Virus record (IMG/VR): IMGVR_UViG_3300015371_000010
Span: 18,688 to 82,687 of that record
Source of the DNA: a virus
Reading direction: 5' to 3' (one strand)
Length of the DNA stretch: 64,000 nucleotides
The translations under genes were made by a program, and so were the position numbers. Under the pieces are notes generated by a model. It saw nothing but the letters and a program-made list of their open reading frames with translations, was not told where the DNA came from and made no database searches. Below, piece by piece: positions 1,853 through 42,682 of the stretch (position 1 is the stretch's first letter; every line of letters starts with the position of its first letter).

Positions 1853-1995
1853 GTGCAGCAGCCGCCCAGACCATCGAACATGTCTGGCACCGCCCAGAGC
1901 CCCATTACTTCGAGGGGCTGAGGAACACCTGGGTCTGCAACCAGGTGAACTGCGATGGCGAGCACCACCACTACGTGCCATGTGGTCCGCGCTGA
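1849..1995 (+). CDS. 48-aa His/Cys-rich small protein (not in ORF track)
   Basis: ATGA overlap with the dnaB stop; MSAAAAQTIEHVWHRPEPHYFEGLRNTWVCNQVNCDGEHHHYVPCGPR*; fills the gap to the primase start. Confidence 0.55.
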   Translation: MSAAAAQTIEHVWHRPEPHYFEGLRNTWVCNQVNCDGEHHHYVPCGPR

Positions 1996-13715: not shown

Positions 13716-13716
13716 G

Positions 13717-14406: not shown

Positions 14407-14415
14407 CATCAGCCC

Positions 14416-25108: not shown

Positions 25109-25426
25109 ATGGTCAGCGCCTGCATGATCACCGGCTCCTTCACCACTTCGCAGGGACGACCGGTCCAGGGCCTGGTCCGGTTCATACCCAGCAGGCTCTG
25201 GGTGGTGGTAGACAACATCACCTGGGCCTGTCTGGCGCCCACGATCCAGACCGGCAGGGACGGCAGCTTCACTGCCTGGGTCACGGCCACCGACAACGAT
25301 GCGGTGCCCTGGACCTACCAGGTGGAGACACCAGCCGGCATCTGGACCACCTACATCCCCTGGATCGCCTCCGGCTACGCGCTGCCTGACCTGTTGCACG
25401 GCCATGGAGTAGAACACTCCACATGA
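25109..25426 (+). CDS. Small beta-sandwich virion protein
   Basis: G.PVQGLVRFIPS...DGSF...ATD....WTYQV, resembling the N-terminal domain of actinophage minor tail proteins. Confidence 0.55.
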   Translation: MVSACMITGSFTTSQGRPVQGLVRFIPSRLWVVVDNITWACLAPTIQTGRDGSFTAWVTATDNDAVPWTYQVETPAGIWTTYIPWIASGYALPDLLHGHGVEHST

Positions 25427-26925
25427 CGCTGATGCTGGGTCGGGCCCCCAGGACCGATGATGAGCTGTACGAGCTGGTCAAGGTCATGTGGGGGATCACC
25501 ATCCCCCGGCACAAGGTGTGCGGCGAGCACGATGCCCCCTTCGACGCCTTCGCCTGCGCCTACTTCAACCGCGAGCCGCAGATCCTGATCCACGGCTCTC
25601 GTGGTCTGTCCGGGAAGTCCCGGCTGCTCTCCATCCTGGGCATCACCATGGCCGCGGTGAAGGGCTCGGACGTGAACATCGTCGGTGGCTCGCTGAACCA
25701 GTCGATCAACATCCACAACACCATCCGCGATGCCTGGGAGTCCGAGCACGCCCCGAACTACCTGGTCCGCGAGGAGAGCGCCACCAAGATCCGGCTGTTC
25801 AACAAGGCCGTGATCATGCCGCTGACCGCCAGCCAGAAGACCGTGCGTGGCCCGCACCCACCGACCCTGTTGCTGGATGAGATCGACGAGATGGACCAGG
25901 CCATCTTCGATGCGGCCAAGGGCCAGCCGATGCCGCAGCAGAACTGGCGCGGGGAGATCGTCCGGCCGCAGACCGCGATGAGCTCGACCTGGCAGTACCC
26001 GGACAAGACCTTCGCGCACGAGTACCAGCGCTTCCAGGAGGAGGGGCTGCCGATCTTCACCTGGTGCTACCGGGACACCTCCAACCCGATCGATGGCTGG
26101 CTGGACCAGGAGACCATCGACCAGAAGAAGCGCGAGATCCCGACCGAGATGTGGCGGGTGGAGTACGACCTGGGTGAGCCCTCGATCGGCAACCGTGCCA
26201 TCGACTCCCAGGCGGTGGAGGAGATGTTCTCACTGCCCACCGACACCATCCACGAGTCGGTGCAGAAGGAGCGCCAGGAGTACCGGTTCGAGAACCCGAA
26301 CTCCTCCGCGGAGTACGTGATCAGTGCGGACTGGGCTCAGGCCCAGGACTGGACGGTGATCACGGTGACCGATGTGAGCTTCTTCCCGGTCCGGGTGGTG
26401 CACTGGCTGCGGATGCGCCGGCACCCCTACCCAGTGATGATCGGGCACTTCAACCGGCTGATGAAGGAGTACAACGCCGAGGGCATCCACGATGCCACTG
26501 GGCTCGGAGCCGTGGTCGCGGACTACGTGGACCGGCGGGCCCGGGGCTTCCTGATGACCGGTGCCCAGCGGGACAACATGCTCAGCGAGTACATCTCCGC
26601 GGTGGAGAACGGGAAGTGGCGCGCCCCTCGGATCCCGGTCTTCTACAAGTCCCACCTGTATGCCTCGGTGGAGATGATCTACGCGCGCGGCAAGGAGTTC
26701 CACCTGCCCGACGAGATCTGCTCGATGGCGCTGGGCTGGCGGCTGGTCTCCAAGCGGGCCATCCCGGCCCAGCCGATCATGGTGCCCGGTGACCACGGCC
26801 CGACCTGGATCGAGAAGGAGATGCAGGAGAACCGGGACGCCAAGCGGAAGCCAGGTCCCTGGGTGGTCGGCTCGGTGCAGAACAAGTCCGATGAGGTGCC
26901 CGAGGAGTTCGACCTGATGGTCTGA
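25423..26925 (+). CDS. terL: Terminase large subunit
   Basis: GSRGLSGKS Walker A, VRGPHP..LLLDE Walker B, nuclease ADWAQAQDWTV, DATGLG, PDEICSMALG. Confidence 0.9.
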   Translation: MTLMLGRAPRTDDELYELVKVMWGITIPRHKVCGEHDAPFDAFACAYFNREPQILIHGSRGLSGKSRLLSILGITMAAVKGSDVNIVGGSLNQSINIHNTIRDAWESEHAPNYLVREESATKIRLFNKAVIMPLTASQKTVRGPHPPTLLLDEIDEMDQAIFDAAKGQPMPQQNWRGEIVRPQTAMSSTWQYPDKTFAHEYQRFQEEGLPIFTWCYRDTSNPIDGWLDQETIDQKKREIPTEMWRVEYDLGEPSIGNRAIDSQAVEEMFSLPTDTIHESVQKERQEYRFENPNSSAEYVISADWAQAQDWTVITVTDVSFFPVRVVHWLRMRRHPYPVMIGHFNRLMKEYNAEGIHDATGLGAVVADYVDRRARGFLMTGAQRDNMLSEYISAVENGKWRAPRIPVFYKSHLYASVEMIYARGKEFHLPDEICSMALGWRLVSKRAIPAQPIMVPGDHGPTWIEKEMQENRDAKRKPGPWVVGSVQNKSDEVPEEFDLMV

Positions 26926-26979: not shown

Positions 26980-27588
26980 TCAGGACTCGGGCGAGACGAA
27001 CTGGCCGGTGTCCGGGTCGCGCGGCAGGTCGCCGGGCAGGGTGTTGTCCGGGTGCGGGTCGTCCGGGTTGGACGGCAGGTCGCCGGGCAGGGTGTTGTCC
27101 GGGTGCGGCTGGGAGTCGTCGGGCTCGGTGGCTCCGCTGTCCTGGCCATCGTCCGGCTCGGGCGGCTCCTCGGTGCTGCCGTCCGGCGGAGGCTCTTCGG
27201 AGCCGGTGTCGCCACCAGTGTCGGGCTCGACCGGGGTCTCCGGGTTTGCACCGATCTGGTTGAGCTCGTCGATCTGCTCGTTGATCGCGTCTGCGGCCTG
27301 GCTGGCCTGGTCAAGGGCCTCCTGGAGCTGCTGCTGCATCGCAGCGTCGTCGAGCTCCTCGTCGGCCAGGGCCTGGTTGGCGGCGTCCAGAGCCTCCTGG
27401 AGCTCCTGAACCTTGCCGGCGAACCGGGCGTTGATGTCGTCCACGGCGGACTGAAGGTCTGCCACCGACTTGCTGAGATCTGCCATGCGCTTCTCCATCT
27501 GGTCGAGAGTGTCAATGATGTAGAACAGCAGCTGTCGATCCGACAGGCCACTCAGGGGAACGAGCACCCTGGTCTCGGGGTCAGCCAT
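26980..27588 (-). CDS. Acidic coiled-coil protein with Pro/Asp-rich repeats
   Basis: Own codon bias on the minus strand; TAAGTT-6 nt-ATG leaderless signal; fills the terL-portal gap. Confidence 0.7.
   Translation of the reverse strand: MADPETRVLVPLSGLSDRQLLFYIIDTLDQMEKRMADLSKSVADLQSAVDDINARFAGKVQELQEALDAANQALADEELDDAAMQQQLQEALDQASQAADAINEQIDELNQIGANPETPVEPDTGGDTGSEEPPPDGSTEEPPEPDDGQDSGATEPDDSQPHPDNTLPGDLPSNPDDPHPDNTLPGDLPRDPDTGQFVSPES
27022..27108. repeat. 36-nt direct repeat, two copies (encodes PHPDNTLPGDLP)
   Basis: CGGCAGGTCGCCGGGCAGGGTGTTGTCCGGGTGCGG at 27022-27057 and 27073-27108. Confidence 0.9.
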
Positions 27589-29538: not shown

Positions 29539-32500
29539 ATGCCGTACGCCAGTAACAAGCAGGCCGCCTACATGCACATCCATCACCCGGATATCGCGGC
29601 CAAGTGGCACGAGGCAGGCCACGGCTACGTCAAGGGCGGCAAGAACGACCCGGCCAAGAAGAAGCGCAAGGTGCGGAAGAACGCCCAGATGCAGGGCTGG
29701 CTCAAGCCGCTGAGCGTCGGCGTGATCGGCGGGGCGCTGGCCAACCAGTTCCCCTCCTACGAGGAGCGGGAGCGGCGCAGGGCGCTCAAGGCCCGGCGCA
29801 AGGGTCAGATCAAGAAGATGCAGGCGCCGGCCTCGGACGACCCCCACTACAACCAGGAGGCGGCTCAGAAGGCCTTCGACCTGGTGATGAAGATGGACGA
29901 CGACACCGCCGAGGTGTTCTGCCACGTCGTGACCTCGGACTACTTCGAGGAGACGGTGGAGAAGAACCTGGGCACCCTGCAGCGCCATCTCAACGAGACC
30001 CTGCAGGCTCAGCTGGCGGACCTGAAGAAGGCGCACGTCCGGCTGGTGGCCAAGGGCATGGACAGCCAGGAGGCGGTCGCCTACGCCCAGGCCATCGCGC
30101 TGATCGAGAAGCAGCTGGCCGACCCGATCAGCAAGGCGCAGGGCAAGAAGAACCCCTACCAGTACGGCTATGTCTGGCGGGAGCAGGACTTCAACCGGGA
30201 CCCGGGCTCCGGTCAGTTCCGGACCAAGATCAGCCACAACCAGACCAAGGAGCTGGACGACAAGGTCTTCACCCAGCTCACCGGGGCATCCACGCCGTCC
30301 CGGTCGCGCAGTGGCAAGAAGCTGACCGAGGAGGACCGGGTCCGGTTCCAGGACGAGTACCGCCAGCTGTCCGGCTTCATGCAGGCGGTGCGGGCCTCCA
30401 CCGGTCCCGGCGGCAACACCTCGGTGATGCTGCACTACCGGGACCGGAACGGGAACGACTTCTCCCAGGTGCACTTCGGTACCAAGCCGCCGATCGACGA
30501 CCTGGCCGACCCGGACTTCAGGCTGCTGGGGGTGGAGGCCAAGCCGACCACGCTGACCGCCGGCGGAGCTGCCTTCGGACTGGCCACCGCGCTGGGCGGC
30601 GGGATGAACTCCCAGCAGATCGAGGCGATCAACAACGTCGAGGGCGGGGCTGGTCGGTCCTTCTCGGAGAAGTGGCTCTCCTCGGGAGACGCCCAGAACT
30701 CCAACGCCAAGCTGTACGGCCGGCTGGCGGCCAGCGGGGATCTGATCTCCTCGGTGGGTGGGCCCAAGGCCCAGATGGCCGGCAAGTTCGCCTCGATCGT
30801 GGGCAGTGCCGGTCCGCAGGCCGAGGCGGTGCTGGGCCCGACCACGCGCAAGACCGCCTACCGATACCGGGGCACCGAGAAGAGTCCGGAGCGGAACCTG
30901 GTCCGGGCCTACGACCAGGGCATCAAGCAGGGCAAGGTCTGGGGCGACCTGTCCGAGGCCGAGCAGGAAGAGGCTGTCCGCGGCTATGCCACCCGCCCGC
31001 GTGGGAAGGCGCCACGGGCCAAGGAAGGTGGAGCGCCGCAGGTTCACCGGATGGCCGAGAACCGGATGGCCCTGGAGCAGCGCGCTCCGGAGTGGGGCGA
31101 GCGGGAACCGGGTCGACGGGCCATCGTGGACCATCTGCGGGCCAAGCTGCCCAAGAAGAACCTCTACGAGCTTCAGCTGGCCAGCGGGAACACGCCACCG
31201 TCCGAGGGCGTGATCCTGAATGCGGATGGGCAGATCGTCACCCAGGCGGTGGGTTACGGCGATGATCACTACCTCCCGTTCAACCTGAAGAACCTCAAGG
31301 GTCTGAAGGGCGGGGAGTACATCCGTACCCGGAGCGTCGGCGGGCTGACCAGCGAAGACATCTACACCGCGATGATGATGGGAGCCCGCCGGGTCACGGT
31401 CACCTCGCGCTCGGGCACCTACGTGATGGAGTTCGAGCCGGACTTCAGGGGCGGGCGTCGGCACAACGACAAGGCCCGCCGGATGACCAGGCGCTACGAG
31501 CAGCTCCTGGACGCGGTGCAGTCCCAGCAGGTGGAGCGGATCGACATCGACCCGGAGATGCGCCAGCAGATCGAGAACGAGGTCAAGGAGGAGATGTCGG
31601 GCGCTGGCTGGACCCAGCGGGACCGAATGGAGGCGATCCGGGAGCGGATCGATGAGTTCAAGGAGAACCCCTACATCACCGAGCAGGACGAGAAGCGGGC
31701 CGAGGCGATCATCACTTCCCGGGGCGCCAACGCCAGTGAGGCGGAGAAGGCCAGGATCCGGGCCTCGGTCTACGACGACCTGATGGACCAGAAGGAGACC
31801 AAGTTCCGGCTGAACAGCGCCGGCTACAAGGCCGCCCTGGACGCGCTGCAGGAGCAGTTCCCCTACTACATCAAGCAGCCGCGCTGGACCCCGCCTCGGG
31901 ACGAGGGCAAGAAGATCGAGACCGCGCTGGACCGCGGCTATGTGGAGCCGGGCCGGAACCGGCCCACGGCGGCCAAGGCCGGCCTGTACGGCACCAAGGC
32001 CAACCCGGGCCAGAAGTTCTCTGCTTCCCACGCCGACTACCAGGGCACTCGACACGCGCCCGGTCGGGCCGTCCCGGTGGAGACCGAGGAGGCCGCTGCC
32101 GTCAGTGCCGGCGGGGACCGGAAGAGCACCGAGAAGGAGCGGCGCAAGGCACTGGCCGGGGCCCAGAACGAGTACAAGGTCTCCGAGGTGGCGACCAAGA
32201 TCCAGGAGAACGCCAAGGGCAAGCTCGGGCCGAAGTCCCAGGCCGACCCGGACATCAAGCGGTACCTGGACATGACTGGCGATGAGCTGAAGGACGCCGA
32301 CAACCTGGAGGGCTTCAACAACTGGGTGGGCCGGTACCTGGGCATGGCCGAGGTCAACGAACCCGGTCTGCGCCGGGAGTGGGAAGCGGCCTACGGCGGG
32401 CTGAACCGGGAGAAGTTCGACCGGAAGAACATCCAGAGCTACCCCAAGTTCCCGCCCAAGTTCGATGAGGACGCCTACGAGGCCGGGGCCAGCCGGAGCG

Positions 32501-33120
32501 AGGTCGACAAGGAGCTGAACCGGATCGACCGGAAGGCACGCAGCGGGGTGGTGAACGCGGTGCCACTGTCCGGGATGACCGAGCAGGAGTACGCCTCGGA
32601 GCACCGAGCGCTGGCCGGGATGCACCGGGCGCTGCAGATCAACCCGGAGCAGCCGCTGTCCAACGCCGTGCTGCAGGACCTGGGCGTGGACACCACCGCG
32701 CCGGCGGTAGCCAAGCTGCGCCGGGATCCGGACGCGATCGTGGAGCAGATGGAGTACCTCCAGCGGGCCCGGGCGCTGACCAGCGGCATGTCCTCGGAGA
32801 CCCGAGAGGCACGGCAGAGCGCGGCCACCCAACGTGAGGTGGTCCGGGCCCAGCCGCAGACCAAGACGGCTCGCGCGGCGGTGACCGGGAACGTGCAGGC
32901 CAACATCAACCTGGCTCGATCGATCGCAGATCAGCTGGAGACGCTGGAGGACAAGGACGAGGACGAGATCGAGACGATTCGGAACCTGGCCTCGGACTGG
33001 GAGGAAGGAGCCGGCGAGCTCACCAACCCGGAGCAGACGCAGGCGTTCAACGCAGTACACGATGACGCACTGCGGACGCTGATGCGGGCGATGCACCGGC
33101 TCAACAACCCGAGTAGCTGA
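29539..33120 (+). CDS. Large head-associated multidomain protein
   Basis: 1193 aa with strong codon bias between portal and MuF; N-terminal MPYASNKQAAYMHIHHPDIAAKW motif; JAB-like segment. Confidence 0.75.
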   Translation: MPYASNKQAAYMHIHHPDIAAKWHEAGHGYVKGGKNDPAKKKRKVRKNAQMQGWLKPLSVGVIGGALANQFPSYEERERRRALKARRKGQIKKMQAPASDDPHYNQEAAQKAFDLVMKMDDDTAEVFCHVVTSDYFEETVEKNLGTLQRHLNETLQAQLADLKKAHVRLVAKGMDSQEAVAYAQAIALIEKQLADPISKAQGKKNPYQYGYVWREQDFNRDPGSGQFRTKISHNQTKELDDKVFTQLTGASTPSRSRSGKKLTEEDRVRFQDEYRQLSGFMQAVRASTGPGGNTSVMLHYRDRNGNDFSQVHFGTKPPIDDLADPDFRLLGVEAKPTTLTAGGAAFGLATALGGGMNSQQIEAINNVEGGAGRSFSEKWLSSGDAQNSNAKLYGRLAASGDLISSVGGPKAQMAGKFASIVGSAGPQAEAVLGPTTRKTAYRYRGTEKSPERNLVRAYDQGIKQGKVWGDLSEAEQEEAVRGYATRPRGKAPRAKEGGAPQVHRMAENRMALEQRAPEWGEREPGRRAIVDHLRAKLPKKNLYELQLASGNTPPSEGVILNADGQIVTQAVGYGDDHYLPFNLKNLKGLKGGEYIRTRSVGGLTSEDIYTAMMMGARRVTVTSRSGTYVMEFEPDFRGGRRHNDKARRMTRRYEQLLDAVQSQQVERIDIDPEMRQQIENEVKEEMSGAGWTQRDRMEAIRERIDEFKENPYITEQDEKRAEAIITSRGANASEAEKARIRASVYDDLMDQKETKFRLNSAGYKAALDALQEQFPYYIKQPRWTPPRDEGKKIETALDRGYVEPGRNRPTAAKAGLYGTKANPGQKFSASHADYQGTRHAPGRAVPVETEEAAAVSAGGDRKSTEKERRKALAGAQNEYKVSEVATKIQENAKGKLGPKSQADPDIKRYLDMTGDELKDADNLEGFNNWVGRYLGMAEVNEPGLRREWEAAYGGLNREKFDRKNIQSYPKFPPKFDEDAYEAGASRSEVDKELNRIDRKARSGVVNAVPLSGMTEQEYASEHRALAGMHRALQINPEQPLSNAVLQDLGVDTTAPAVAKLRRDPDAIVEQMEYLQRARALTSGMSSETREARQSAATQREVVRAQPQTKTARAAVTGNVQANINLARSIADQLETLEDKDEDEIETIRNLASDWEEGAGELTNPEQTQAFNAVHDDALRTLMRAMHRLNNPSS

Positions 33121-35096
33121 TGACCACAGCCCCGTACGTTGAGCTCCGGTTCAACCCGACGGACCTGCGACCCCAGGACATCCCTCGTGCCGGGGCCTAC
33201 CTGGGGTCGCCGGCCCGGGCCATCGAGGCGGCCCTGGCGGTGGCTCGGGCCTCGATGGTGGACCAGATGAAGAAGGAGGTCCGGGGGCTCTCCCAGCCCA
33301 CCCACAACCAGCTGCTCCGGATCGCGGACCTGGCCTGGCAGGCCACGTTCTGGCGGTTCCGGAAGGTCTCCGCCCCGGTGATCGCGGATGCCTACCTGCA
33401 CGCCTACCGGGACGCGGACGCCGGCGACGTGCCGGCCAGCCTGATCTACGACCTGGCCGACAAGCACGCGGAGAAGATCGGGGACTACTTCCACGCCACC
33501 TCCCGAGAGGCCCTGGCCGAGGGGTTCAACGGGCTGGTGAACCGGCGGGTCCCGGCCCGAGCGGCGGCGGACCGGGTGCTGGATGCCTACGGACTGACCC
33601 CACGGCAGATGCGTACCTACACCGCGGCCAAGCAGTTCGACACCCCGGTCAGTGATGTGATGCCCCGCTCGATCAAGGCCAAGGCCCGGGCCTACATCGA
33701 CAAGGCGTTCACCACCCGGAACCGGAAGCTGTCTGACCAGGAGGAGCACAACATCGACGAGCAGGCCAAGCAGCTGGCCTGGATGTGGCTCCAGGACAAG
33801 GGCCGGCTCAACGACCGGGCCCAGAAGATGTGGCTGACCGCCAAGGACGAGCGGGTCTGCCCGGTCTGTGGTCCGCTGCACGGCAAGAAGGTCGGGATCA
33901 ACGAGAAGTTCGTGACCCACCAGGGCGAGTTCTGGTCGCCGGGGCTGCACCCGAACTGCCGCTGTGAGCTCCGGCTGATCGAGAACAAGTTCTCCAAGGC
34001 CGACTGGGATCCCCAGGAGCACCCGCGCGGAGGCGACCCCGAGAACCGGGGCCGGTTCTCCCGAGTGGCGTCCCGGCCTGGCCCGCTGTTCAAGGAGCCG
34101 GACCGGCCGGTGATCGAGACCACCGAGGAGGAGGCGCCGGTGGAGATGGCCTCCGAGACGGTGGAGATGGTCGGCAACGTGGAGATGAACCAGAAGGTCG
34201 AGATGACTCCGGTGGAGATGATCCGGCCGGAGATGACCCGGGGCCGGGCCGAGCTGATCCAGCCGGAGCTGACCGACGAGCGCAGGCGGGAGCTCCTGGA
34301 GATGACCGTCACCCCGCAGATGCGGCTGGAGATGGAGCGCAGCTTCGCCGACATCATCGCGGAGGGAGAGCGCAGGCGTCCGACGAAGCGGCCCAAGCGC
34401 GTCTACGACCGGCCGACCATCTCGATCCAGGACGAGAACGGGCACGAGTACCCGGTCTACGCGGTGGTGGACCGCAATGACGACGTGAACTGGCACGGAG
34501 GCAAGATGCAGTTGCACCAGGACGTGCGCTTCTACACCTCGCAGTCCCAGGCCTACCGGATCGCCACCGACAAGTTCGAGCAGGCCATCGAGGACGAGTA
34601 CGACGCCATCATCGGCAGTGGCCGGCACAACCAGAAGCAGTGGCTGGGCAACCAGCAGTACGAGCTGATCTTCGACGAGGAGGACGTGTACAACGCTGTC
34701 ATCTGGACCGCCTACCAGGGTCGGGTGCCGGAAGGGATGGAGGCGCCCACGCACAGCTCGGTGGTGGCGGAGTTCCACGGCACCGGTCCGACCAGCGAGA
34801 TCATCGAGCGGGAGATGAGCCTGAACGAAGCGGCCCGGTTGCTCAACATCGACCGGCGCAACTTCGACGTGCAGATCCTGCGGATGGACGAGGGCCATGC
34901 CTCCTACGAGGGCCAGACCACTGAGCTGGAGCACGGGACTCGGAAGGCCGACCAGGTCTGGGTGACCGAGGGGATCTACAACGTGACCCCGCTGCACGGC
35001 GAGATGGTGGACGAGACCCTCTCCCTGCAGCTGAACTACATCGAGCCGGACGTGGAGGAGACCGAGCGTCCGCTGCCACGGGGGATTCTCGACTAG
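33120..35096 (+). CDS. MuF-like (SPP1 gp7) head morphogenesis protein with C-terminal extension
   Basis: WLTAKDERVCPVCGPLHG...PGLHPNCRC. Confidence 0.85.
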   Translation: MTTAPYVELRFNPTDLRPQDIPRAGAYLGSPARAIEAALAVARASMVDQMKKEVRGLSQPTHNQLLRIADLAWQATFWRFRKVSAPVIADAYLHAYRDADAGDVPASLIYDLADKHAEKIGDYFHATSREALAEGFNGLVNRRVPARAAADRVLDAYGLTPRQMRTYTAAKQFDTPVSDVMPRSIKAKARAYIDKAFTTRNRKLSDQEEHNIDEQAKQLAWMWLQDKGRLNDRAQKMWLTAKDERVCPVCGPLHGKKVGINEKFVTHQGEFWSPGLHPNCRCELRLIENKFSKADWDPQEHPRGGDPENRGRFSRVASRPGPLFKEPDRPVIETTEEEAPVEMASETVEMVGNVEMNQKVEMTPVEMIRPEMTRGRAELIQPELTDERRRELLEMTVTPQMRLEMERSFADIIAEGERRRPTKRPKRVYDRPTISIQDENGHEYPVYAVVDRNDDVNWHGGKMQLHQDVRFYTSQSQAYRIATDKFEQAIEDEYDAIIGSGRHNQKQWLGNQQYELIFDEEDVYNAVIWTAYQGRVPEGMEAPTHSSVVAEFHGTGPTSEIIEREMSLNEAARLLNIDRRNFDVQILRMDEGHASYEGQTTELEHGTRKADQVWVTEGIYNVTPLHGEMVDETLSLQLNYIEPDVEETERPLPRGILD

Positions 35097-35118: not shown

Positions 35119-36141
35119 ATGAGCAACGTGCGCGAGCTGCTGGCCACGGATGAGACGTTCCGCGAGGTGGCCGACCTGTTGTTCGGCGGTGGCGCCGACG
35201 AGCTGATCAGCAAGATGAGCCCGACCCAGTCTGACCTGGCCGCTCACGAGCGGAAGAAGCGCAAGATCACCGCTGGGCTGAGCGCGGTGGGCGCCGGCGC
35301 CGGGGCGGCTGGACTGGCGCTGGGCACGCACAACCTGCGGCGTGGCTACCTGGCCGCGCGGGCCGGGCAGAAGGCCAACTTCGCCTTCCATGCACCTGGG
35401 GCCAAGCGGAAGGCGCTGAAGACCGCGGTCAGCCACGAGAAGCTGGCCACCGGCCTGGTGCCCCTGGAGGTGGCCGGTCTGGGCGGGGAGATCATGGCGA
35501 CCAAGATCCTGCACGGGGACACGAAGAAGAAGGGCTCCCTGGTCAAGAAGGACCTGGGTGAGCTGCTGAACAACGCTTCGGACTCCAAGAGTCAGCTGAC
35601 CCGAGCCAAGATCCCCAGCCCGAAGCAGGTCGCGGCCAAGAAGGGGATCGAGTACACCGCCAAGTCGGGGGTGCTGAAGAAGCTCCCGGACAAGGTGCTG
35701 ACCCATCACAAGGTCAAGAAGAACGAGGAGCCCAGCGAGGTCGACGTGATCTGGGAGGGCGAGTTCGCCAAGGCCGACCCGGACAAGCAGCAGGTCTTCG
35801 GCTGGGCCAGCGTGGTCGAGGTCAACGGCGAGCCGGTGGTGGACCTGCAGGGCGACGTGATCGCGCCGGAGGAGATGGAGAAGGCCGGCTACGAGTACGT
35901 GATGAAGTCCCGCAAGGGCGGGGACATGCACCTGCGGAACAACTGGGAGCCGATCAAGAAGTCGGAGATGATCGAGAGCTTCATCGTCACCGAGGAGAAG
36001 CGCGAGGCCATGGGCCTTCCCGACTCGGTACCGACGGGCTGGTGGGTCGGCTTCCAGGTCCAGGACCCCGAGGTGTGGTCGATGATCAAGGACGGCCGGC
36101 GTACGGGCTTCTCGATCCACGGTCACGGCAAGCGTTCATGA
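35119..36141 (+). CDS. Prohead (capsid maturation) protease, XkdF-like, with N-terminal extension
   Basis: KQQVFGWASV, VDLQGD, GDMH, IESFI, PTGWWVG, W..IKDG..TGFSIHG. Confidence 0.85.
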   Translation: MSNVRELLATDETFREVADLLFGGGADELISKMSPTQSDLAAHERKKRKITAGLSAVGAGAGAAGLALGTHNLRRGYLAARAGQKANFAFHAPGAKRKALKTAVSHEKLATGLVPLEVAGLGGEIMATKILHGDTKKKGSLVKKDLGELLNNASDSKSQLTRAKIPSPKQVAAKKGIEYTAKSGVLKKLPDKVLTHHKVKKNEEPSEVDVIWEGEFAKADPDKQQVFGWASVVEVNGEPVVDLQGDVIAPEEMEKAGYEYVMKSRKGGDMHLRNNWEPIKKSEMIESFIVTEEKREAMGLPDSVPTGWWVGFQVQDPEVWSMIKDGRRTGFSIHGHGKRS

Positions 36142-37979
36142 CCACCAAGCGACAGGAGCGCACCGCCTCCGGAGCGGCCATCGCCGCCGGCGGTGGGGTA
36201 GCGGCCGGGACAGGGCTTGCCGCCGGCGGGGTGCCAGGCGGCAAGTCCGACTTCACCACGGTGCTCAACCTGAAGGAGCCCAAGGGCAAGACCAAGCCGG
36301 GTCGGCTGGCCAGCGCTGCGATCCGGAACCGGCACGTGGCCCGAGCCGCGCCCGGTGGCATCCTCGGCTTCCGCACCCACGCGCACCAGGGCGGGATGGT
36401 GGGCTTCGAGCAGCAGGCCGCGCACAAGGCTGGGGTGAAGCCCCCGTCGGGCAAGGAGGCCGGCCATGCCTTCTCGCACGGCTACGTCCAGGGCAAGATC
36501 GCGCCCGAGGCCAAGATCATCCGGCACATGAAGGGCGGCAAGAAGGCCGCTGCCGGGCTCCTGGTCGGTGGGGCCGCGACCACGGCGTACGGCCTGAAGC
36601 GGACCAAGGTGGAGAAGGCCCAGCGCCACAACGACCAGTACAGCGGCACTCTGGCCGGAGCCGGCGGGGCCGGACTGGCGGTCAGCGCCGGCGGGCACAA
36701 GCTGTTCCGGGGCCAGGAGCGCAAGTGGCGCAACACCGCGAACACCAGCGTCGACGAGGCCCAGAAGCTGGTGCCGGGGTTGGGTGGCCGACAGGGCCAG
36801 CGACTCTCGCTGAAGCAGATGCACAAGTACCGGCAGAAGCATGGACCGGACAAGCCGTGGCCGAAGTCGATGACCCCGGAGCGCTCGATGAGCGAGATCT
36901 CCCGGGACAAGAAGGTCTTCCAGGGGGTGCACCCGGAGGTGGCCCGGAAGGCCGGTCAGCTCCGAGGCGTGGCGGCTCAGGCCGAGCACTTCTCGCACGT
37001 CTACGGGAGCACAGCGAAGGTGGTGGGCAGGTTGCGGGGTCCAAGCGCGATCGTGGCGGGAGCCGGAGTCGGCGGGCTGGCGGCCTCCAGGAAGCCGGAC
37101 AAGCGGGTCTCCAAGTCGGACAAGCCGCTGATGAGCGATGCCCAGCTGCGCCGCCGACGCAAGGCGCAGAGCTCCATCGGCCGGACCACCTCCACCATGG
37201 GCCTGACCGGTCTGGGCGTCACCGGAGTCGCGGCGGTGGCCGCCAAGAAGCCGGGTGTGCTCCGGGCGGTGCGCAAGGCACCGGGGCTGAAGGATGTCAC
37301 GCCCAAGAAGATGGAGGGCTACGCGCTCAAGACCGGCATCGTCTCCGGTGGCATCGGCGGGATCGGTGGGTTCAACCAGGCCGCGATCTATGGCGACGAG
37401 GCGCGGCGCAAGAAGCAGACCACCCTGAAGAAGGGGCTGACGGAAGGCACGGACATGGGTGTCATCGAGATGGGGTTCTTCGGTGAGGAGGGCCGGCCGG
37501 TCAAGCTGAAGGAGATCGAGGCCGAGGTGGAGAAGGCCTGGACCCCCGCCGCGCGCAACTTCGACTCCGAGGCCAGCCGGCAGAAGCGGGCCAAGGTCTA
37601 CGAGGGCGGGTCCCTGGTGGCTGCCGGCGGGGCCGGCGCGTACACCGCGCACCACGGGCTGAAGACGATCGAGGCAGGGCGTGGGGCCAAGCCCAAGGTG
37701 ATGGCTCCGGTGGAGCACCGCCGCAACGCCAAGGGGAACCCGTACAAGATCGCGCTGGCCACCAAGGGCGAGCACGCCATCCCGGTAAAGGGTCTCAAGG
37801 CGGTGGGCCGTCATGGTGGACGCACTGCGCTTGGTGCTGGCGCGGTTGCGGCTGCGGCTGGCACGCATGCTGCGCTGAAGCGGAAGCAGAGTGGCTCGTG
37901 GCAGCCCTACGCCAAGCGAGACACCTTCTCGGCCTTCGGCGTGGACCACGGACTGGACAGCTCAGAGTCCACTGTCTGA
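36138..37979 (+). CDS. Basic Gly/Ala-rich putative polyprotein (internal virion cargo)
   Basis: ATGA overlap with the protease; repeated Gly-zipper segments; C-terminal SAFGVDHG. Confidence 0.7.
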   Translation: MTTKRQERTASGAAIAAGGGVAAGTGLAAGGVPGGKSDFTTVLNLKEPKGKTKPGRLASAAIRNRHVARAAPGGILGFRTHAHQGGMVGFEQQAAHKAGVKPPSGKEAGHAFSHGYVQGKIAPEAKIIRHMKGGKKAAAGLLVGGAATTAYGLKRTKVEKAQRHNDQYSGTLAGAGGAGLAVSAGGHKLFRGQERKWRNTANTSVDEAQKLVPGLGGRQGQRLSLKQMHKYRQKHGPDKPWPKSMTPERSMSEISRDKKVFQGVHPEVARKAGQLRGVAAQAEHFSHVYGSTAKVVGRLRGPSAIVAGAGVGGLAASRKPDKRVSKSDKPLMSDAQLRRRRKAQSSIGRTTSTMGLTGLGVTGVAAVAAKKPGVLRAVRKAPGLKDVTPKKMEGYALKTGIVSGGIGGIGGFNQAAIYGDEARRKKQTTLKKGLTEGTDMGVIEMGFFGEEGRPVKLKEIEAEVEKAWTPAARNFDSEASRQKRAKVYEGGSLVAAGGAGAYTAHHGLKTIEAGRGAKPKVMAPVEHRRNAKGNPYKIALATKGEHAIPVKGLKAVGRHGGRTALGAGAVAAAAGTHAALKRKQSGSWQPYAKRDTFSAFGVDHGLDSSESTV

Positions 37980-38027
37980 CACACCGAATGGACAGCACCG
38001 TGAGACTGAGAACTAGAGGTTGATGAC

Positions 38028-38834
38028 ATGCCACAGCGACGGAACTTGACCGACATGGAGATCGACGAGATCTCCACGGTGGACAAGGCAGCGAACCAGC
38101 TTTCCAGGTTCGTCATTGCGAAGCGGGCTCCCGAGGAGGAAGAGATGCCCAAGCTCTACAACCAGGAGGGACAGCCCCTCGACGAAGACAACCTGGAGTT
38201 CGGCGACATCGTCTACGACGACCAGGGCCAGGCCTACGAGTGGGTCGAGGACAAGGGTGAGGAGGAGGAGAAGGACGAGCCCGTTCCCGAGCTCGCCACG
38301 GTCGGCAAGTCGGCCTTCTTCGAGCGCCAGGCTCCTCAGGCCGGCAGCTTCACCCAGTCGGTGATGGAGGAGCTCTCCAAGGCCTTCTCCGACGAGGACC
38401 GAGACGCCGTGATCGCCAAGGCGCTCGGCCGGGTCGAGGAGCTGGAGAAGGCGCAGAAGGAGGCCGCCGAGATCGCCAAGAGCGAGCGGGACCTCCGGCT
38501 GACCCGGGAGTACATCTCCAAGGCCGCCGAGTACAACCTGCCGGTCGCGCCGACCGAGCTGGGCCCGGTGCTCTTCCGGATGGCCGAGTCGATGTCCTAC
38601 GAGGACTGCGCAGTGATCGCCAAGTGCCTGGAGACGGCCGGCGAGATCCTCTTCGAGGAGCGCGGCTACCAGGGCGGCGGCGACAACGCCGACATCTACA
38701 GCCAGGTCTCCGCTCACGCTCACGAGGCCTTCGGCAAGTCCGAGGACTTCAACGAGGTGACCGCCATCAACAAGGTGTTCGACGAGAACCCGGACGCCTA
38801 CGACGAGTACCTGCGTTCGCAGCAGATCCGATAG
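38028..38834 (+). CDS. Capsid scaffolding protein
   Basis: N-terminal LTDMEIDEISTVDKAAN; acidic helical body; many hydrophobic-x-K-(A/S) sites; position before cement and MCP. Confidence 0.75.
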   Translation: MPQRRNLTDMEIDEISTVDKAANQLSRFVIAKRAPEEEEMPKLYNQEGQPLDEDNLEFGDIVYDDQGQAYEWVEDKGEEEEKDEPVPELATVGKSAFFERQAPQAGSFTQSVMEELSKAFSDEDRDAVIAKALGRVEELEKAQKEAAEIAKSERDLRLTREYISKAAEYNLPVAPTELGPVLFRMAESMSYEDCAVIAKCLETAGEILFEERGYQGGGDNADIYSQVSAHAHEAFGKSEDFNEVTAINKVFDENPDAYDEYLRSQQIR

Positions 38835-38846
38835 GAGGGAAGCTCA

Positions 38847-39248
38847 ATGGCCTACGAAGAGAGCCTTCGGTCGATCACGCTGAACGCGGACTCGTCCCTG
38901 GGCATCTACACGGGGGTTCCGGGTCAGCCCGGCTCCCCGGACCCACACGGAGGGCGGCAGTACCACTTCGTGAAGGTCACCGGCGTCCACCAGTGTGGGC
39001 TCGCGGCTGCCACCGGCGATGTCTGTGGGGTGCTGCAGAACAAGCCCCAGGGCACCGGCCAGGCCGCCACGGTCGCCATCGCGGGGGTCTCCAAGGTGGT
39101 CTCCGATGTGGCGATCACCGCAGGTGACCCGATCTACGCCAGCGCCGACGGCCAGGCTGCCAAGACCGGCACCGGTCCACGGGTCGGCACCGCACTGTCC
39201 ACCACCGCCAACCCCGGAGAACTCGTCAACGTTCTCCTCACGCTCTGA
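38847..39248 (+). CDS. Capsid cement/decoration protein (DUF2190-like)
   Basis: QYHFVK, GVLQNKP..GQAATV...GVSKV, ITAGD....ADGQA, GTAL. Confidence 0.8.
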   Translation: MAYEESLRSITLNADSSLGIYTGVPGQPGSPDPHGGRQYHFVKVTGVHQCGLAAATGDVCGVLQNKPQGTGQAATVAIAGVSKVVSDVAITAGDPIYASADGQAAKTGTGPRVGTALSTTANPGELVNVLLTL

Positions 39249-39264
39249 GAGGGAGTGACTAGCC

Positions 39265-40263
39265 ATGCCTAACCCCACCCAGAGCGATCTCCACGTCAAC
39301 GTTCCGCTGACCAATGTCTCCGTCGCCTACATGCAGGACAAGTCGCAGTTCATCGCGGACAAGGTCTTCCCCCGGGTGCCGGTGCAGAAGCAGAGCGATC
39401 TGTACTGGAAGTACTCCAAGTCCGACTGGCGCCGGACCGACGCGCAGAAGCGCGCCCCCGGCACCGAGACGGCTGGCGTTGGCTGGAAGGTCGACACGGG
39501 GCAGTACTTCGCCGAGGTCTGGGGTGTCCACAAGGACATCGACGACCAGGTCCGGGCGAACGCTGACTCCAACTGGAGGCTCGACAGCGACGCGACGACG
39601 TTCGTCACCAACCAGCTCCTGCTCCGCCGGGACCTGGACTGGAACGACAAGTACTTCAAGACCGGACAGTGGGGCACCGACCTCACCGGGGTCACCGGAA
39701 CCGTGGGTGCCGGCCAGTTCCTGCAGTGGAGCGACCCGGCTTCAGACCCGATCGTGCAGTTCTCCGACCTGCAGACCAACTTCGTGGAGCAGTCCGGCCG
39801 CAAGGCCAACACGCTGGTCCTCGGAGCACGGGCGATCACTCAGCTGAAGAACCACCCCGACATCATCGACCGCATCAAGTACACCCAGCGTGGTGTGGTG
39901 ACCACCGACCTGCTCGCGTCGCTGTTCGATGTGGAGCGGATCCTGGTCAGCTACGCGACGGTGACCGATGTGGCCGAGCTGAACGACGCCAAGGCGCAGG
40001 ATGCTGCGGCGACCTACCGGTTCATGTCCAACTCGAAGAGCGCGCTGCTCTGCTTCACCCCGAGCAGCCCGTCCCTGATGACCCCGGCTGCGGGCTACAT
40101 CTTCACCTGGAACGGCTACCTGGCTGGCAACAGCTACGGGATCCGCATGAAGAACTTCCGGATGGAGCCGATCGCTGCGGACCGCATCGAGGGCGAGATG
40201 ACCTACGACATGCGTGTCGTGGCGAAGGACATGGGCATCTTCCTGGCCAACGCTGTCGCCTAG
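39265..40263 (+). CDS. Major capsid protein
   Basis: LTNVSVAY.Q, FIADKVFPRVPVQKQS, RAPGT, WSD..SDP, LKNHPDIIDRIKYT. Confidence 0.9.
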   Translation: MPNPTQSDLHVNVPLTNVSVAYMQDKSQFIADKVFPRVPVQKQSDLYWKYSKSDWRRTDAQKRAPGTETAGVGWKVDTGQYFAEVWGVHKDIDDQVRANADSNWRLDSDATTFVTNQLLLRRDLDWNDKYFKTGQWGTDLTGVTGTVGAGQFLQWSDPASDPIVQFSDLQTNFVEQSGRKANTLVLGARAITQLKNHPDIIDRIKYTQRGVVTTDLLASLFDVERILVSYATVTDVAELNDAKAQDAAATYRFMSNSKSALLCFTPSSPSLMTPAAGYIFTWNGYLAGNSYGIRMKNFRMEPIAADRIEGEMTYDMRVVAKDMGIFLANAVA

Positions 40264-40271
40264 GAGGCGTC

Positions 40272-40472
40272 ATGGAGAGCGCCTTCGGCGTCGAGCATGG
40301 CGGAATCAGCAAGGGGCTCGGCGGGTTTCTGAAGCCCGCCGGGTCCAAGGCTGGCAAGGCCGTAGCAGTGGCTGGGAAGCGTCGTGGGCCGGTTACCGTC
40401 ACCGGCGGCGCGCAGACCGGCGGTAAGTACCGGGCTGGGCAGCTGCCCTACAAGGGCAAGCACACGGGGTAG
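40272..40472 (+). CDS. SAFGxxHG-leader small basic protein 1
   Basis: GGAGG RBS; MESAFGVEHGGISKGLGG... then K/G/A-rich. Confidence 0.75.
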   Translation: MESAFGVEHGGISKGLGGFLKPAGSKAGKAVAVAGKRRGPVTVTGGAQTGGKYRAGQLPYKGKHTG

Positions 40473-40474
40473 CC

Positions 40475-40579
40475 ATGAAGCGGTTGGCCTGGTTGATCGG
40501 GCGGTTCGTGCGATGGTTTCTGGGAATGCCTAGACAGCTACCAGGACCAGTACAGAGAAGGGCGGAGTTCCATGCCTAG
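40475..40579 (+). CDS. Possible 34-aa amphipathic peptide
   Basis: MKRLAWLIGRFVRWFLGMPRQLPGPVQRRAEFHA*; fills the gap and overlaps the next start. Confidence 0.35.
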   Translation: MKRLAWLIGRFVRWFLGMPRQLPGPVQRRAEFHA

Positions 40580-41096
40580 CCAGCTGATCAACAACGAGGC
40601 CATCTCTTTCGTCTGCGCCAAGAACTTCACCTACGCCGGCGAGGACTACCAGATGGGGGACGACTTCCCCCAGGAGGTGGCCAAGAACATCGAGTCTCTC
40701 GTCCGAGCTCGGTTCCTGATCCCGGTCATTGAGTCCACCGACGACAAGCCGCGGCACTGGCATCGAGAGGTACGGACTCGTGAGGAGGCCATGGAGTACC
40801 TCAACCGGGATCGGGTGCAGCTGCGAATGCACCACGAACCGGACTCGGACGAGGTGGTGGACATCGAGAAGCTCACCTACCCGGAGACCACTCCAGAGGC
40901 CGAGGAGCTGGCGGAGTCCCAGAGCGAGGAGACCACGACGGCTGCTCAGGCGGTGCACGACGACCAGTACGACCCCAGCTACCACACGGTGGTGGAGGTC
41001 AACACCTACCTGGCCACCGCCGACGCGGAGGAGCGGGAGCGGGTGCTGGAGGCCGAGCGCAACGGCAAGGCCCGCAAGGGCATCCTGGAGGCCTGA
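40572..41096 (+). CDS. Head-associated protein with small C-terminal helical domain
   Basis: Acidic; C-terminal TVVEVNTYL...ERERVLEAERNGKARKGIL. Confidence 0.7.
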   Translation: MPSQLINNEAISFVCAKNFTYAGEDYQMGDDFPQEVAKNIESLVRARFLIPVIESTDDKPRHWHREVRTREEAMEYLNRDRVQLRMHHEPDSDEVVDIEKLTYPETTPEAEELAESQSEETTTAAQAVHDDQYDPSYHTVVEVNTYLATADAEERERVLEAERNGKARKGILEA

Positions 41097-41458
41097 TGAT
41101 CAGCGCGTTCGGTGTGGACCACGGCGAGGTCTCCAAGGCCTTCGGCTCCAACATCACCCGGTTGGGCTCCAAGCTCGGCTCCGCGACCTCACGGGCCGGC
41201 ACCAACCTGGTCGGCCGGGGTGTGGCCAACAAGGGTGCGGCTCGGGCGATGGGGAAGCCGATGACCGGCGCGATGCGCGGGTTCCAGCGGGGTCTGGGCG
41301 TGGGCGGCAGTGCACAGGGTGCTGTGGGCGGCCGGCTGCAGCGAGCCGGTGCCGGCATGATGAAGCGGCCCGGACTGACCGGGAGCCTGGCCGTGGGTGG
41401 CGCTGGCGCCGGTGGTGGCGCGGCTCTCCTCGGGAATCGGCAGCGCAGGACGTTCTGA
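41096..41458 (+). CDS. SAFGxxHG-leader small basic protein 2
   Basis: TGATG coupling; MISAFGVDHGEVSKAFG...; ends with Gly-zipper RPGLTGSLAVGGAGAGGGAALL. Confidence 0.8.
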   Translation: MISAFGVDHGEVSKAFGSNITRLGSKLGSATSRAGTNLVGRGVANKGAARAMGKPMTGAMRGFQRGLGVGGSAQGAVGGRLQRAGAGMMKRPGLTGSLAVGGAGAGGGAALLGNRQRRTF

Positions 41459-41766
41459 TGCAGAGCGCGTTCGGGATCGAGCACGGGGAGGTCGCCAAGG
41501 CCTTCCGCGCGCCCCGGCCCAAGAAGGGCTACGTCCCGAGGGGCGGTGGCCAGACCGGCCCGCAGAAGACCAAGGGGGCGCTGCACCGGATCGGAGAGGC
41601 CGACATCTCCCTGAAGAACATCGGGACCGCCGCCGGCCGGGGCATGAAGGGCACTGGCGGCTTCCTGGAGCGGCATCCTGGTCTGACCGGCACGGCACTG
41701 GTGGGAGGTGGCGGTGCCGCCGGGTACAAGTACCTGAGCACCAAGCCGCGCAAGAAGGGGTCCTGA
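41458..41766 (+). CDS. SAFGxxHG-leader small basic protein 3
   Basis: TGATG coupling; MQSAFGIEHGEVAKAF...; HPGLTGTALVGGGGAAGY. Confidence 0.8.
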   Translation: MQSAFGIEHGEVAKAFRAPRPKKGYVPRGGGQTGPQKTKGALHRIGEADISLKNIGTAAGRGMKGTGGFLERHPGLTGTALVGGGGAAGYKYLSTKPRKKGS

Positions 41767-42272
41767 TGACCACCACCTACACGGTCCCTGGCGATACCGA
41801 CAAGGACACCCTGCGGTTCCTGATCCAGGACACCGACCCGCACGACGCGGATGAGTGGCAGCTCCAGGACGAAGAGATCCAATGGGCCTACGACACCTGG
41901 TTCCCGCTCTACAACAACCTCTACTTTGTGGCGGCGACGCTGGCAGATACGATCGCAGCGCGTTACGCACGCGAGGCGTCTTACAGCGCCGACGGGGTGA
42001 GCATCAGTCTCGGGCCGGTGGGGGATCAGTACCGAGCTCTGGCTGCGTCGCTTCGAGAGCAGTACAAGAGCTCGCTCGTTGGGGGCGGACCCGACGTGGG
42101 TGGCATGGCCCCCAACGAGCAGCTCCTGCCCGACACCAAGCCGTTCTCCTTCGGCAAGGGGCTGCACGACAACATCGAGGCCGGCCCCCAGGAGTACGGC
42201 GGGGTCTACCCGCCTGAGCAGGCCCTGCAGATCCTGGCCGTGCCCGAGTACGAGCAGGTCGTCGAGCCGTGA
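41766..42272 (+). CDS. Head-to-tail adaptor
   Basis: DTLRFLIQDTD...LQDEEI...AA....IAARYAR....SADGVSIS. Confidence 0.75.
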   Translation: MTTTYTVPGDTDKDTLRFLIQDTDPHDADEWQLQDEEIQWAYDTWFPLYNNLYFVAATLADTIAARYAREASYSADGVSISLGPVGDQYRALAASLREQYKSSLVGGGPDVGGMAPNEQLLPDTKPFSFGKGLHDNIEAGPQEYGGVYPPEQALQILAVPEYEQVVEP

Positions 42273-42682
42273 CCAGCCCGATCACCGCCGAGGCTCGGAA
42301 GTACGTCCGGACCCGGGCCACCGAGGTGATGGAGTACACCTGCCGGATCGAGCGCACCGGGGTGCCCGGGAGCTATGACGAGGACTCGCTGATCTACACC
42401 CCCGAGGGCATGGCCGAGGTGATCTACGAGGGTCCCTGCCGGATCTGGGAGGTCTCTGGAGCGGCCGCGATCGTGGTGGGCGACACCGATGTCTACCAGG
42501 TCAGCACCAACCTCTCGATCCCCTGGGACACCCAGGCCATCGTCAAGCGCTATGACCAGGTGACCGTGCTGACCGCGCCCCAGGACAGCCAGATGGTGGG
42601 CAAGCGGTTCGAGATCCAGACGGTGGCCAAGGCCGGTGAGCTCCGGGCCACCCGCCGCTTCGAGGTCACGGGGCTGCAGTGA
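42269..42682 (+). CDS. Head-to-tail stopper (DUF6093-like)
   Basis: MEYTCRIER...IYEGPCRI...LSIPW...D.V......D..MVGKRF..ATRRF. Confidence 0.7.
   Translation: MTSPITAEARKYVRTRATEVMEYTCRIERTGVPGSYDEDSLIYTPEGMAEVIYEGPCRIWEVSGAAAIVVGDTDVYQVSTNLSIPWDTQAIVKRYDQVTVLTAPQDSQMVGKRFEIQTVAKAGELRATRRFEVTGLQ

Follow-up and report, generated by a model that had tools for sequence, protein, structure and literature searches.

A short, nearly invariant SAFG[VI][DE]HG tag on basic head-module proteins of uncultured actinobacterial phages as a candidate excisable capsid-targeting signal

Introduction

The internal proteins of phage T4 are portrayed, in the passages cited here, as small, basic and diverse, with a common N-terminal capsid-targeting sequence (CTS) of 10-19 residues as their only shared feature; by the CTS they are directed to the scaffolding core, and the gp21 protease, which possibly uses its own propeptides likewise, then removes it, and the Alt protein is processed at both ends (PMC9026906, PMC3012670). 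The bond cut by gp21 is given as glutamyl-alanyl (PMC9026906, section 2.5). Giant phages (SPN3US, phiKZ group) are described, again in the passages cited, as employing one gp21-related protease and a short motif on many head proteins, whose processed bodies are packaged and ejected (PMC5694885, PMC7411985, PMC10052503). In the present study we analyse 64,000 nucleotides of viral DNA (hereafter the window), which are bases 18688-82687 of the 82.7 kb IMG/VR record IMGVR_UViG_3300015371_000010 (rated complete by CheckV), and describe an octapeptide, SAFG[VI][DE]HG (hereafter the tag), that is carried by four proteins of the head module next to a putative cleavage site of the form hydrophobic-x-Lys (hydrophobic-x-K).

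To our knowledge, the selection of proteins carried inside the head of tailed phages is essentially obscure outside T4 and the giant phages. Protein loading into a related shell is familiar from encapsulins, whose cargo-loading peptide is short and terminal, is found at either end of the cargo and directs unrelated proteins into an HK97-fold shell. The encapsulin peptide remains attached and binds the shell protein directly, with no protease, portal, scaffold or DNA involved. Unlike an encapsulin compartment, the window has genes for portal, terminase, tape measure and tail tube.

Results

Four tagged proteins in one head module

A six-frame regular-expression scan of the window for SAFG[VIL][DE]HG returned exactly four sites, all of them on the plus strand and in open reading frames (ORFs) of the head module, at the very positions where a first-pass annotation of this DNA had seen the motif (Table 1). 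With a profile made from 65 tags of other genomes, only the four sites in the window scored (39.5, 33.7, 32.9 and 14.8 bits), the next-best score in six frames being 3.7 bits. In three small proteins encoded after the major capsid gene (66, 120 and 102 residues, ORFs starting at 40272, 41096 and 41458), the tag occupies residues 3-10, in the arrangements M-E-SAFGVEHG-G-ISK followed by G, M-I-SAFGVDHG-E-VSK followed by A, and M-Q-SAFGIEHG-E-VAK followed by A, respectively. The fourth copy stands at residue 598 of a 613-residue protein, 16 residues from its end and directly after YAKRDTF.

All three small ORFs appear to be genuine genes, in that their GC content at third codon positions (0.82-0.89, compared to 0.86-0.93 in neighbouring genes) agrees with the surroundings, they start with ATG and overlap stop to start, and a GGAGG-like sequence lies upstream of two of them. 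Their products are strongly basic (isoelectric point, pI, 10.6-12.0) and consist of Gly and Ala to 33-40%. The 120- and 102-residue proteins both end in PGLTG, a Gly/Ala-rich stretch and a basic tail (RQRRTF in the former), as had been noticed from the sequence. Homologues of the 102-residue protein are present in many contigs; the 120-residue protein has 30 metagenomic homologues, none named, and retrieved from the ESM Atlas only unnamed viral clusters (scores 0.85). In its AlphaFold2 model the tag is a coil (predicted local distance difference test, pLDDT, about 58) attached to a helical body; the lone tag is thereby predicted to be disordered, as would fit a linear motif that is read by a partner.

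The 613-residue protein (pI 10.7) has no Pfam or PHROG family. Among the viral loci that were fetched for comparison (numbered L001 onward), its homologues carry the tag N-terminally in L020, L049 and L004 and C-terminally in L008, L013, L021, L042, L051-53 and others. Compared with its relatives, the protein of the window has the look of two joined modules, which L024 and L067 encode as independent ORFs with C-terminal tags, and its junction (RVSKSD) has kept a hydrophobic-S-K site while the tag is absent. One internal tag is common to two bodies in L024, which suggests that tags are also points at which cargo genes fuse and split. As a side observation, the MuF-like proteins of the Arthrobacter phages Kovu (L001:2124-3782) and Ottawa (L003:1324-2979) end in ..SDRSTF and ..TDRSAF; these ends recall the K-R-D-T-F-SAF context of the window's C-terminal tag and may be coincidence.

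The tag in viral and cellular genomes

A degenerate DNA pattern for SAFG[VI][DE]HG, covering only the AGC serine codon, matched 114 stretches in IMG/VR contigs, corresponding to 84 distinct sites. A start codon is placed at -2 in 75 of these 84, a hydrophobic-x-K occurs within 7 residues after HG in 78, and both features are combined in 73. The same pattern was applied to cellular genomes as a control (596 Gb, one genome for each of 185,579 prokaryote species), and there it found 76 sites with a start at -2 in none, a hydrophobic-x-K in one and both in none. Chance occurrence, which had been named as the outcome that would speak against a functional motif, is excluded by the difference between viral contigs and cellular genomes in this same-pattern comparison.

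The amino-acid scan of the fetched viral loci gave 152 distinct tagged ORFs. In 137 of them the tag is N-terminal, with the start codon at -2 (121), -3 (12) or -1 (4). By inspection, the other 15 divide into 11 C-terminal or internal tags, 3 N-terminal tags with a seven-residue lead and 1 chance hit (L096), which is of the same kind as the chance matches in bacteria. The position independence proposed for the tag is thus borne out. S, A, F, G and H do not vary across the 137 N-terminal tags, whose consensus reads M-x-S-A-F-G-[V107/I30]-[D96/E41]-H-G, then 0-3 residues, then [IVF]-[SEA]-K-[AGS]. Since codon usage at the tag positions is unrestricted, drawing on all Ser codon families and on every Gly and Ala codon, selection on the tag is, by this measure, at the level of the peptide and not of the DNA. 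The tagged ORFs start with ATG in 126/137 cases, and GGAG or GAGG lies at -16 to -4 in 64/137 (47%) as compared to 14% of random positions. Five large tag-bearing records (four of them 99-100% complete, one 72%) hold 4, 8, 6, 7 and 6 tags; each of these lies on the coding strand, and a reversed-pattern control had 0 matches; five incomplete records hold 2-5 tags each and the genome of the window holds 4.

Searches against cultured phages returned no match for positions 36000-42300 (megablast), none at E <= 1 for the 120-residue protein (tblastn), and none at E <= 10 for its first 21 residues (tblastn), the last being a weak test with so short a query. The first-pass annotation knew of no description of the motif, and we found none in print: literature searches returned work on T4, giant phages, P1 and encapsulins, amino-acid motifs not being searchable as text.

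Placement rule and putative cleavage site

In 132 of the 137 N-terminal tags the first Lys follows HG at a distance of 2-6 residues, the usual form being [IVF][SEA]K. For C-terminal and internal tags the arrangement is mirrored, with a hydrophobic-x-K located 0-9 residues upstream in 11/11, often in the form K-(R/S)-D-(T/S)-x-SAFG. Internal tags (L024, L057, L077) are flanked by such a site on both sides, as exemplified by VSK-RDTE-SAFGVEHG-EVSK-LFG in L024. The hydrophobic-x-K already noticed beside the tag is therefore always situated between tag and body, and cutting there would excise the tag from either end of the protein; of the arguments internal to the sequences, none speaks more strongly for a putatively excisable tag. 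The conserved hydrophobic-x-K is what suggests the putative tag removal by the prohead protease.

Three kinds of N-terminal module, namely the tags, the propeptide of the protease and a module that heads the scaffold-like protein, end in hydrophobic-x-K, and a single protease cutting after Lys would fit this common ending. Homology between tag and propeptide, suggested by eye from [FY]-G, a spacer and hydrophobic-S-K, was considered and dropped, hhalign having aligned only 6 columns (ISK; probability 0.3%, E 0.18). Protease N-termini match the pattern [FY]G.{3,8}[IVLF].K more often than shuffles do (34/97 compared to 2.2), and this shows only the conservation of the propeptide itself.

In the scaffold-like protein, the N-terminal module reads EIDEISTVDKAANQLSRFVIAK, ends with K32 and is followed by R; it is near-invariant in 21 homologues, EIDEIS(T/L)VDK(A/G)ANQ....VIAK-R. 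A similar module, ..EIS.VD.(P/G/A)A....(V/I)..K, opens the scaffold-like proteins in RDJL Phi1, RHph_Y60, Kovu and ValentiniPuff, and in gp09 of Bacillus phage B83, a protease-scaffold fusion, the same module precedes the XkdF core. Judged from these arrangements, it seems that the module has been transferred between the genes for protease and scaffold. The idea that it supplies a missing strand of the protease fold is no more than a lead: the PF14550 domain of the window's protein is already complete (positions 5-124 of 126), and Kovu and ValentiniPuff carry the module without a detectable XkdF core. A tblastn search with the scaffold-like protein gave no match among cultured phages.

A gp21-like protease in the tagged module

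The protein encoded immediately upstream of the 613-residue protein was proposed as an XkdF-like protease. It matches PF14550 with 64.0 bits (gathering cut-off 24; E 1.7e-17; residues 216-339) and is laid out as an N-terminal propeptide, two Gly/Ala-rich helices with basic residues before them and a C-terminal XkdF core at about 211-337. Its AlphaFold2 model (103-row alignment) has a mean pLDDT of 72.9, with the core above 90, and of known structures it most resembles the T4 gp21 protease (5jbl_A; Z 9.1, root-mean-square deviation 3.0 A across 107 residues, with residues 211-337 of the model aligned), in agreement with the proposal. Foldseek alone gave nothing at E <= 0.001, with gp21 at rank 13 (probability 0.51) and both gp21 and the human cytomegalovirus protease at E about 1; a sequence search of the PDB gave nothing at E <= 10. 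H271 (in GGDMH), S332 and H334 (both in GFSIHG) are invariant in the 103 homologues and are candidate catalytic residues.

The propeptide, ..FREVADLLFGGGADELISK-M, is predicted to be helical (pLDDT 80-91) and ends in ELISK, with K32 at least 90% conserved among the same homologues. Inspection by eye of 12 locus homologues and the first 60 library matches gave the form ..F.EVA.LL[FY]G.G...L[IV][SA]K-M.P..SDL, and the propeptide is common to hundreds of metagenomic homologues. The protease family as a whole comprises 3674 metagenomic cluster representatives at E <= 0.001, the SAFG tag being present in none of the top 150. Co-occurrence of tag and protease, which had been suggested as a check, was found in 9 of the 10 other tag-bearing records searched for PF14550; the one exception is a fragment and breaks off at the portal. 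The protease stop codon is often the exact point at which a tagged gene begins. The predicted complex of the XkdF core (residues 196-340, 103 rows) with residues 1-40 of the 120-residue protein (98 rows) scored 0.00 against a mark of 0.32 in a run made without controls, and weighs neither for nor against an interaction.

Tagged bodies and tagged enzymes

The bodies attached to the tag had been called divergent, very basic and Gly/Ala-rich, and the wider sample agrees: BLASTP sorts the 131 bodies with 30 or more residues into 75 clusters, and these bodies have a median pI of 11.5 (above 9 in 130/131) and are 31% Gly and Ala. An uncharged Gly/Ala-rich stretch of at least 18 residues is present in 65/134, often as ..PGLTG-(G/A)n-basic tail. 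A Pfam scan of 132 tagged proteins left 127 without a family at E <= 0.001, and for 28 longer tagged proteins PHROGs yielded only HNH endonuclease and one family of unknown function. Among longer proteins sharing words of the tag, 11 candidates were considered and none matched at E <= 10.

The few recognizable bodies include enzymes and portals. An HNH endonuclease (L004:3592-4131, minus strand; Pfam HNH_3 5e-17, phrog_826 1.2e-25) ends in ..PVSK-SAFGVEHGV and is encoded upstream of the portal gene, hence an enzyme of the DNA-packaging neighbourhood with a C-terminal head tag. Other tagged Pfam matches are a GNAT fragment (L058), a DUF7218 protein (L084) and a portal (L077), and a tagged protein of L016 matches DUF6582 weakly and a PHROG family of unknown function at 2.7e-17. 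In the L077 portal (564-2489), ..KKVKKSDTTSAFGVDHGDISKG.. is found at residue 561 of 642 and precedes an 82-residue Gln-rich extension; the L078 portal terminates with ..KRKVGKSAFGIEHQ, ending ..KRKVGK-SAFGIEHQ. Both portals have the tag placed after a Lys-rich C-terminal tail.

Besides these, a family of N-terminally tagged proteins of 254-326 residues (L022:4903-5664; L040:6048-6824, minus strand; L043:4081-5058, minus strand; L048:3354-4163) occupies the slot between terminase and portal or, in L043, follows the portal directly. All 4 members have an invariant HExxH and, about 22 residues on, REEARAD, a zincin-like signature by eye; they have no Pfam, PHROG or PDB match, and a PDB profile search gave nothing meaningful. 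The corresponding slot of the window is filled by a minus-strand coiled-coil gene and not by an HExxH protein.

Gene neighbourhood and host

Across relatives, tagged genes are inserted at varying places along the order terminase-[tag]-portal-[tag]-1193-aa-MuF-protease-[tag]-613-aa-scaffold-cement-capsid-[tags]-174-aa-[tags]-connector, thus also between terminase and portal and after the portal. In the window, connector and tail genes come after the small genes from 40272 onward. The major capsid protein is 59-96% identical across tag-bearing contigs; homologues of the 1193-residue protein in these contigs are 23-49% identical and the protein has no Pfam or PHROG family at useful E-values; the acidic, untagged 174-residue protein is conserved, by synteny, between tagged genes. 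All four tagged ORFs of the window are head-module genes, as was first described, and the description needs widening for the relatives, several of which have tagged genes beside a collagen-like cluster far from the capsid gene. These insertions lie within a conserved trio of genes, and the trio of the window holds none.

The window has a GC content of about 66% and encodes a WhiB-family regulator together with a DnaB helicase, a DnaG-type primase and a DNA polymerase III alpha subunit, from which the host is almost certainly an actinobacterium. The tag-bearing phages are a clade of uncultured, siphovirus-like phages of actinobacteria with genomes of about 80 kb.

Table 1. Positions of genes, tags and putative cleavage sites in the window, with corresponding scaffold modules of compared loci
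Feature	Position	Strand	Match or remark
DnaB helicase	554-1852		
DnaG-type primase	1836-2816		
Pol III alpha subunit	4620-7373		
WhiB-family regulator	12350-12973		4.8e-17
Conserved trio: 130-aa protein, collagen-repeat protein, 709-aa protein	13323-16545		Pfam Collagen 2.7e-7
Terminase	25423-26925	+	
Coiled-coil gene	26980-27588	-	Terminase-portal slot
Portal, 631 aa	27642-29537	+	Pfam Portal_Mu 2.3e-35; untagged in window
1193-aa protein	29539-33120	+	After portal, kept in relatives
MuF-like minor head protein	33120-35096	+	Pfam Phage_Mu_F 8.5e-10; PHROG head morphogenesis families
Prohead protease candidate, 340 aa	35119-36141	+	Pfam Peptidase_S78_2 1.7e-17
Protease propeptide	35119-35214		
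Propeptide end ELISK (K32)	35206-35214		
Protease motif GGDMH	35917-35931		
Protease motif GFSIHG	36106-36123		
613-aa basic Gly/Ala-rich protein	36138-37979	+	C-terminal tag
Junction RVSKSD	37104-37121		
YAK-RDTF	37908-37928		
Tag SAFGVDHG	37929-37952	+	613-aa protein
Acidic scaffold-like protein	38028-38834	+	pI 4.3
Scaffold-type N-terminal module	38028-38123		Also L193:4886-5998; L194:4833-5924; L001:7799-8581; L002:7589-8608; L195:2872-4068
Scaffold module K32	38121-38123		
Cement / decoration protein	38847-39248	+	Pfam Phage_cement_2 8.6e-8
Major capsid protein	39265-40263	+	phrog_1005 major head protein 1.9e-87
Tagged protein, 66 aa	40272-40472	+	Basic Gly/Ala-rich body, pI 10.6
Tag SAFGVEHG	40278-40301	+	66-aa protein
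Putative site ISK	40305-40313		66-aa protein
Acidic untagged protein, 174 aa	40572-41096	+	phrog_29381 1.9e-9
Tagged protein, 120 aa	41096-41458	+	Body pI 12.0
Tag SAFGVDHG	41102-41125	+	120-aa protein
Putative site VSK	41129-41137		120-aa protein
PGLTG	41369-41383		120-aa protein
Tagged protein, 102 aa	41458-41766	+	Body pI 10.7
Tag SAFGIEHG	41464-41487	+	102-aa protein
Putative site VAK	41491-41499		102-aa protein
PGLTG	41677-41691		102-aa protein
Tape measure protein, 1877 aa	45128-50761		Peptidase_M23 and SLT transglycosylase domains near C-terminus

Discussion

Based on the collective evidence, SAFG[VI][DE]HG can be understood, by analogy with T4 and with roughly even confidence on our part, as a trans-acting and excisable capsid-targeting tag of the CTS type that serves a variable set of internal proteins. 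In the sequence of packaging, cleavage and ejection that we infer, the tag would dock its protein onto a component of the assembling prohead, and the XkdF/gp21-type protease of the same module would cut after hydrophobic-x-Lys, a kind of site that separates tag from body and also terminates both the protease propeptide and the scaffold's N-terminal module. The freed bodies (for the most part small, Gly/Ala-rich and extremely basic, and now and then an enzyme) would remain in the head with the DNA and probably leave with it at infection. The interpretation given in the first-pass annotation thus holds up as regards the modular tag, the adjoining site, the basic and unrelated bodies and the XkdF protease, and is to be broadened in its confinement to the head module.

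Several points weigh against this understanding. The tag-bearing viruses are all uncultured and known from their sequence alone, and the tag is absent from all 5 cultured relatives checked. A portal is incorporated anyway, so that the tag is not needed there for simple targeting. XkdF proteases are predicted proteases only; we know of no measured cleavage specificity for the family and a literature search found none. The resemblance of tag and propeptide does not hold statistically beyond the ISK end. Moreover, the bodies are rich in Lys and Arg and lysines near the tag are partly expected by chance, so that only the hydrophobic-x-K context and the mirrored placement argue for a cleavage site. 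Tagged genes near collagen-like, fibre-like genes, lastly, fit virion proteins generally more than capsid contents in particular.

The main alternative is that the tag is a processing signal only, either as an exosite or pro-sequence for the protease or as a means of keeping possibly membrane-active bodies inert until maturation, with entry into the prohead effected otherwise, for example by very basic bodies binding to the very acidic scaffold. The contrast in charge (scaffold pI 4.3 against a median of 11.5 for the bodies), the common hydrophobic-x-K ending of propeptide, scaffold module and tags, and the tagging of portals that need no targeting (L077, L078) all speak in its favour. It is nonetheless rather unlikely in our judgement: the spacer from octapeptide to Lys varies between 0 and 4 residues and the octapeptide can stand on either side of the putative scissile bond, for which reason recognition in the active-site cleft is hard to reconcile with the data, an exosite being possible. 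Another alternative dispenses with the putative cleavage and takes the tag as a permanent docking peptide (on portal or neck, the inner or outer capsid surface, or fibres) of minor structural or decoration proteins. That tagged genes adjoin cement, connector and collagen-like genes would suit such a role. The mirrored hydrophobic-x-K and the doubly flanked internal tags would then be left unexplained; the bodies, unrelated to one another, extremely basic and with little predicted order, are unlike decoration proteins, and the tag is also found on an HNH endonuclease and a GNAT fragment, all of which makes permanent docking improbable.

Mimicry of a host signal, to be recognised by a protease, chaperone or export system of the host, has a precedent in Firmicutes phages, where head proteins with shared short N-terminal leaders work in this manner: those of staphylococcal phage 80alpha copy the leader of ribosomal protein L27, which is cut by the host protease Prp. 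For the present tag this would be surprising indeed, given that 0/76 pattern sites in the 185,579 prokaryote species are N-terminal (AGC serine codon only), a Sec or Tat signal peptide is excluded by the copies at C-termini and inside proteins, the acidic tag lacks a hydrophobic core, and the phages encode their own gp21-like protease. A bolder version of capsid targeting, which we regard as doubtful, has the tag as a position-independent cargo-loading peptide that binds a conserved pocket in the HK97-fold shell, of the capsid protein or the scaffold, and is cut out by the prohead protease on the cargo side. The cargo would be swappable and delivered into the host together with the DNA, and it seems no less speculative that it ranges over DNA-coating basic peptides, membrane-active pilot proteins, nucleases, acetyltransferases and candidate metalloproteases. 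If true, this would constitute a natural programmable system of protein packaging that links phage capsids to encapsulins in function.

Excisable capsid targeting has its clearest analogy in the T4 CTS of IPI, IPII, IPIII and Alt, as far as the cited passages describe it. In either case, diverse small basic proteins encoded at variable loci resemble one another solely in a short terminal propeptide, and a gp21-fold protease with a propeptide of its own belongs to the head module. The sequences probably differ, and the tag is far more conserved, with 5 of its 8 residues invariant in the N-terminal tags of many contigs. Unlike the CTS of the cited passages, the tag is used N-terminally, C-terminally and internally, its distance to the site is variable and the putative cut is after Lys as compared to Glu, in an L/I-x-E context, for gp21; the setting is also another, with actinobacterial hosts, a siphovirus-like virus, a lambda-E-type capsid protein and an XkdF-family protease, and the system is known here from genes alone. 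The giant phages, in the passages cited above, share a cleavage motif and no long invariant tag, their propeptides being long and dissimilar and their genomes about 240 kb. Among cultured phages, comparable systems are those of B83 (gp09), RDJL Phi1 (gp71/gp72) and Rhizobium phage RHph_Y60 (058/057), which have the same PF14550 core and scaffold module and, in RDJL Phi1 and RHph_Y60, a capsid protein of the same family as the window; their records are without the SAFG tag even at one mismatch and without the Gly/Ala-rich N-terminal half of the window's protease protein. That the tag is a CTS-like signal in a distant lineage, new in its use at either end and in its separate cut site after Lys, is a comparison to which we would give an even chance.

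The practical import lies in a nearly invariant tag of 8-14 residues that marks, from sequence, the candidate head contents of a whole clade, and a large one as judged by the size of its protease family. If the proposed function is correct, the injected proteome of uncultured phages would become readable, likely with factors of anti-defence or host takeover included. It would furthermore provide a cleavage rule, open to testing, for the uncharacterised XkdF protease family and a compact handle for the packaging of foreign proteins into phage capsids. For the evolution of tailed phages, it would mean that the principle of the T4 CTS arose independently in a distant lineage, with the addition of an excisable tag that can be placed at either end of the cargo.

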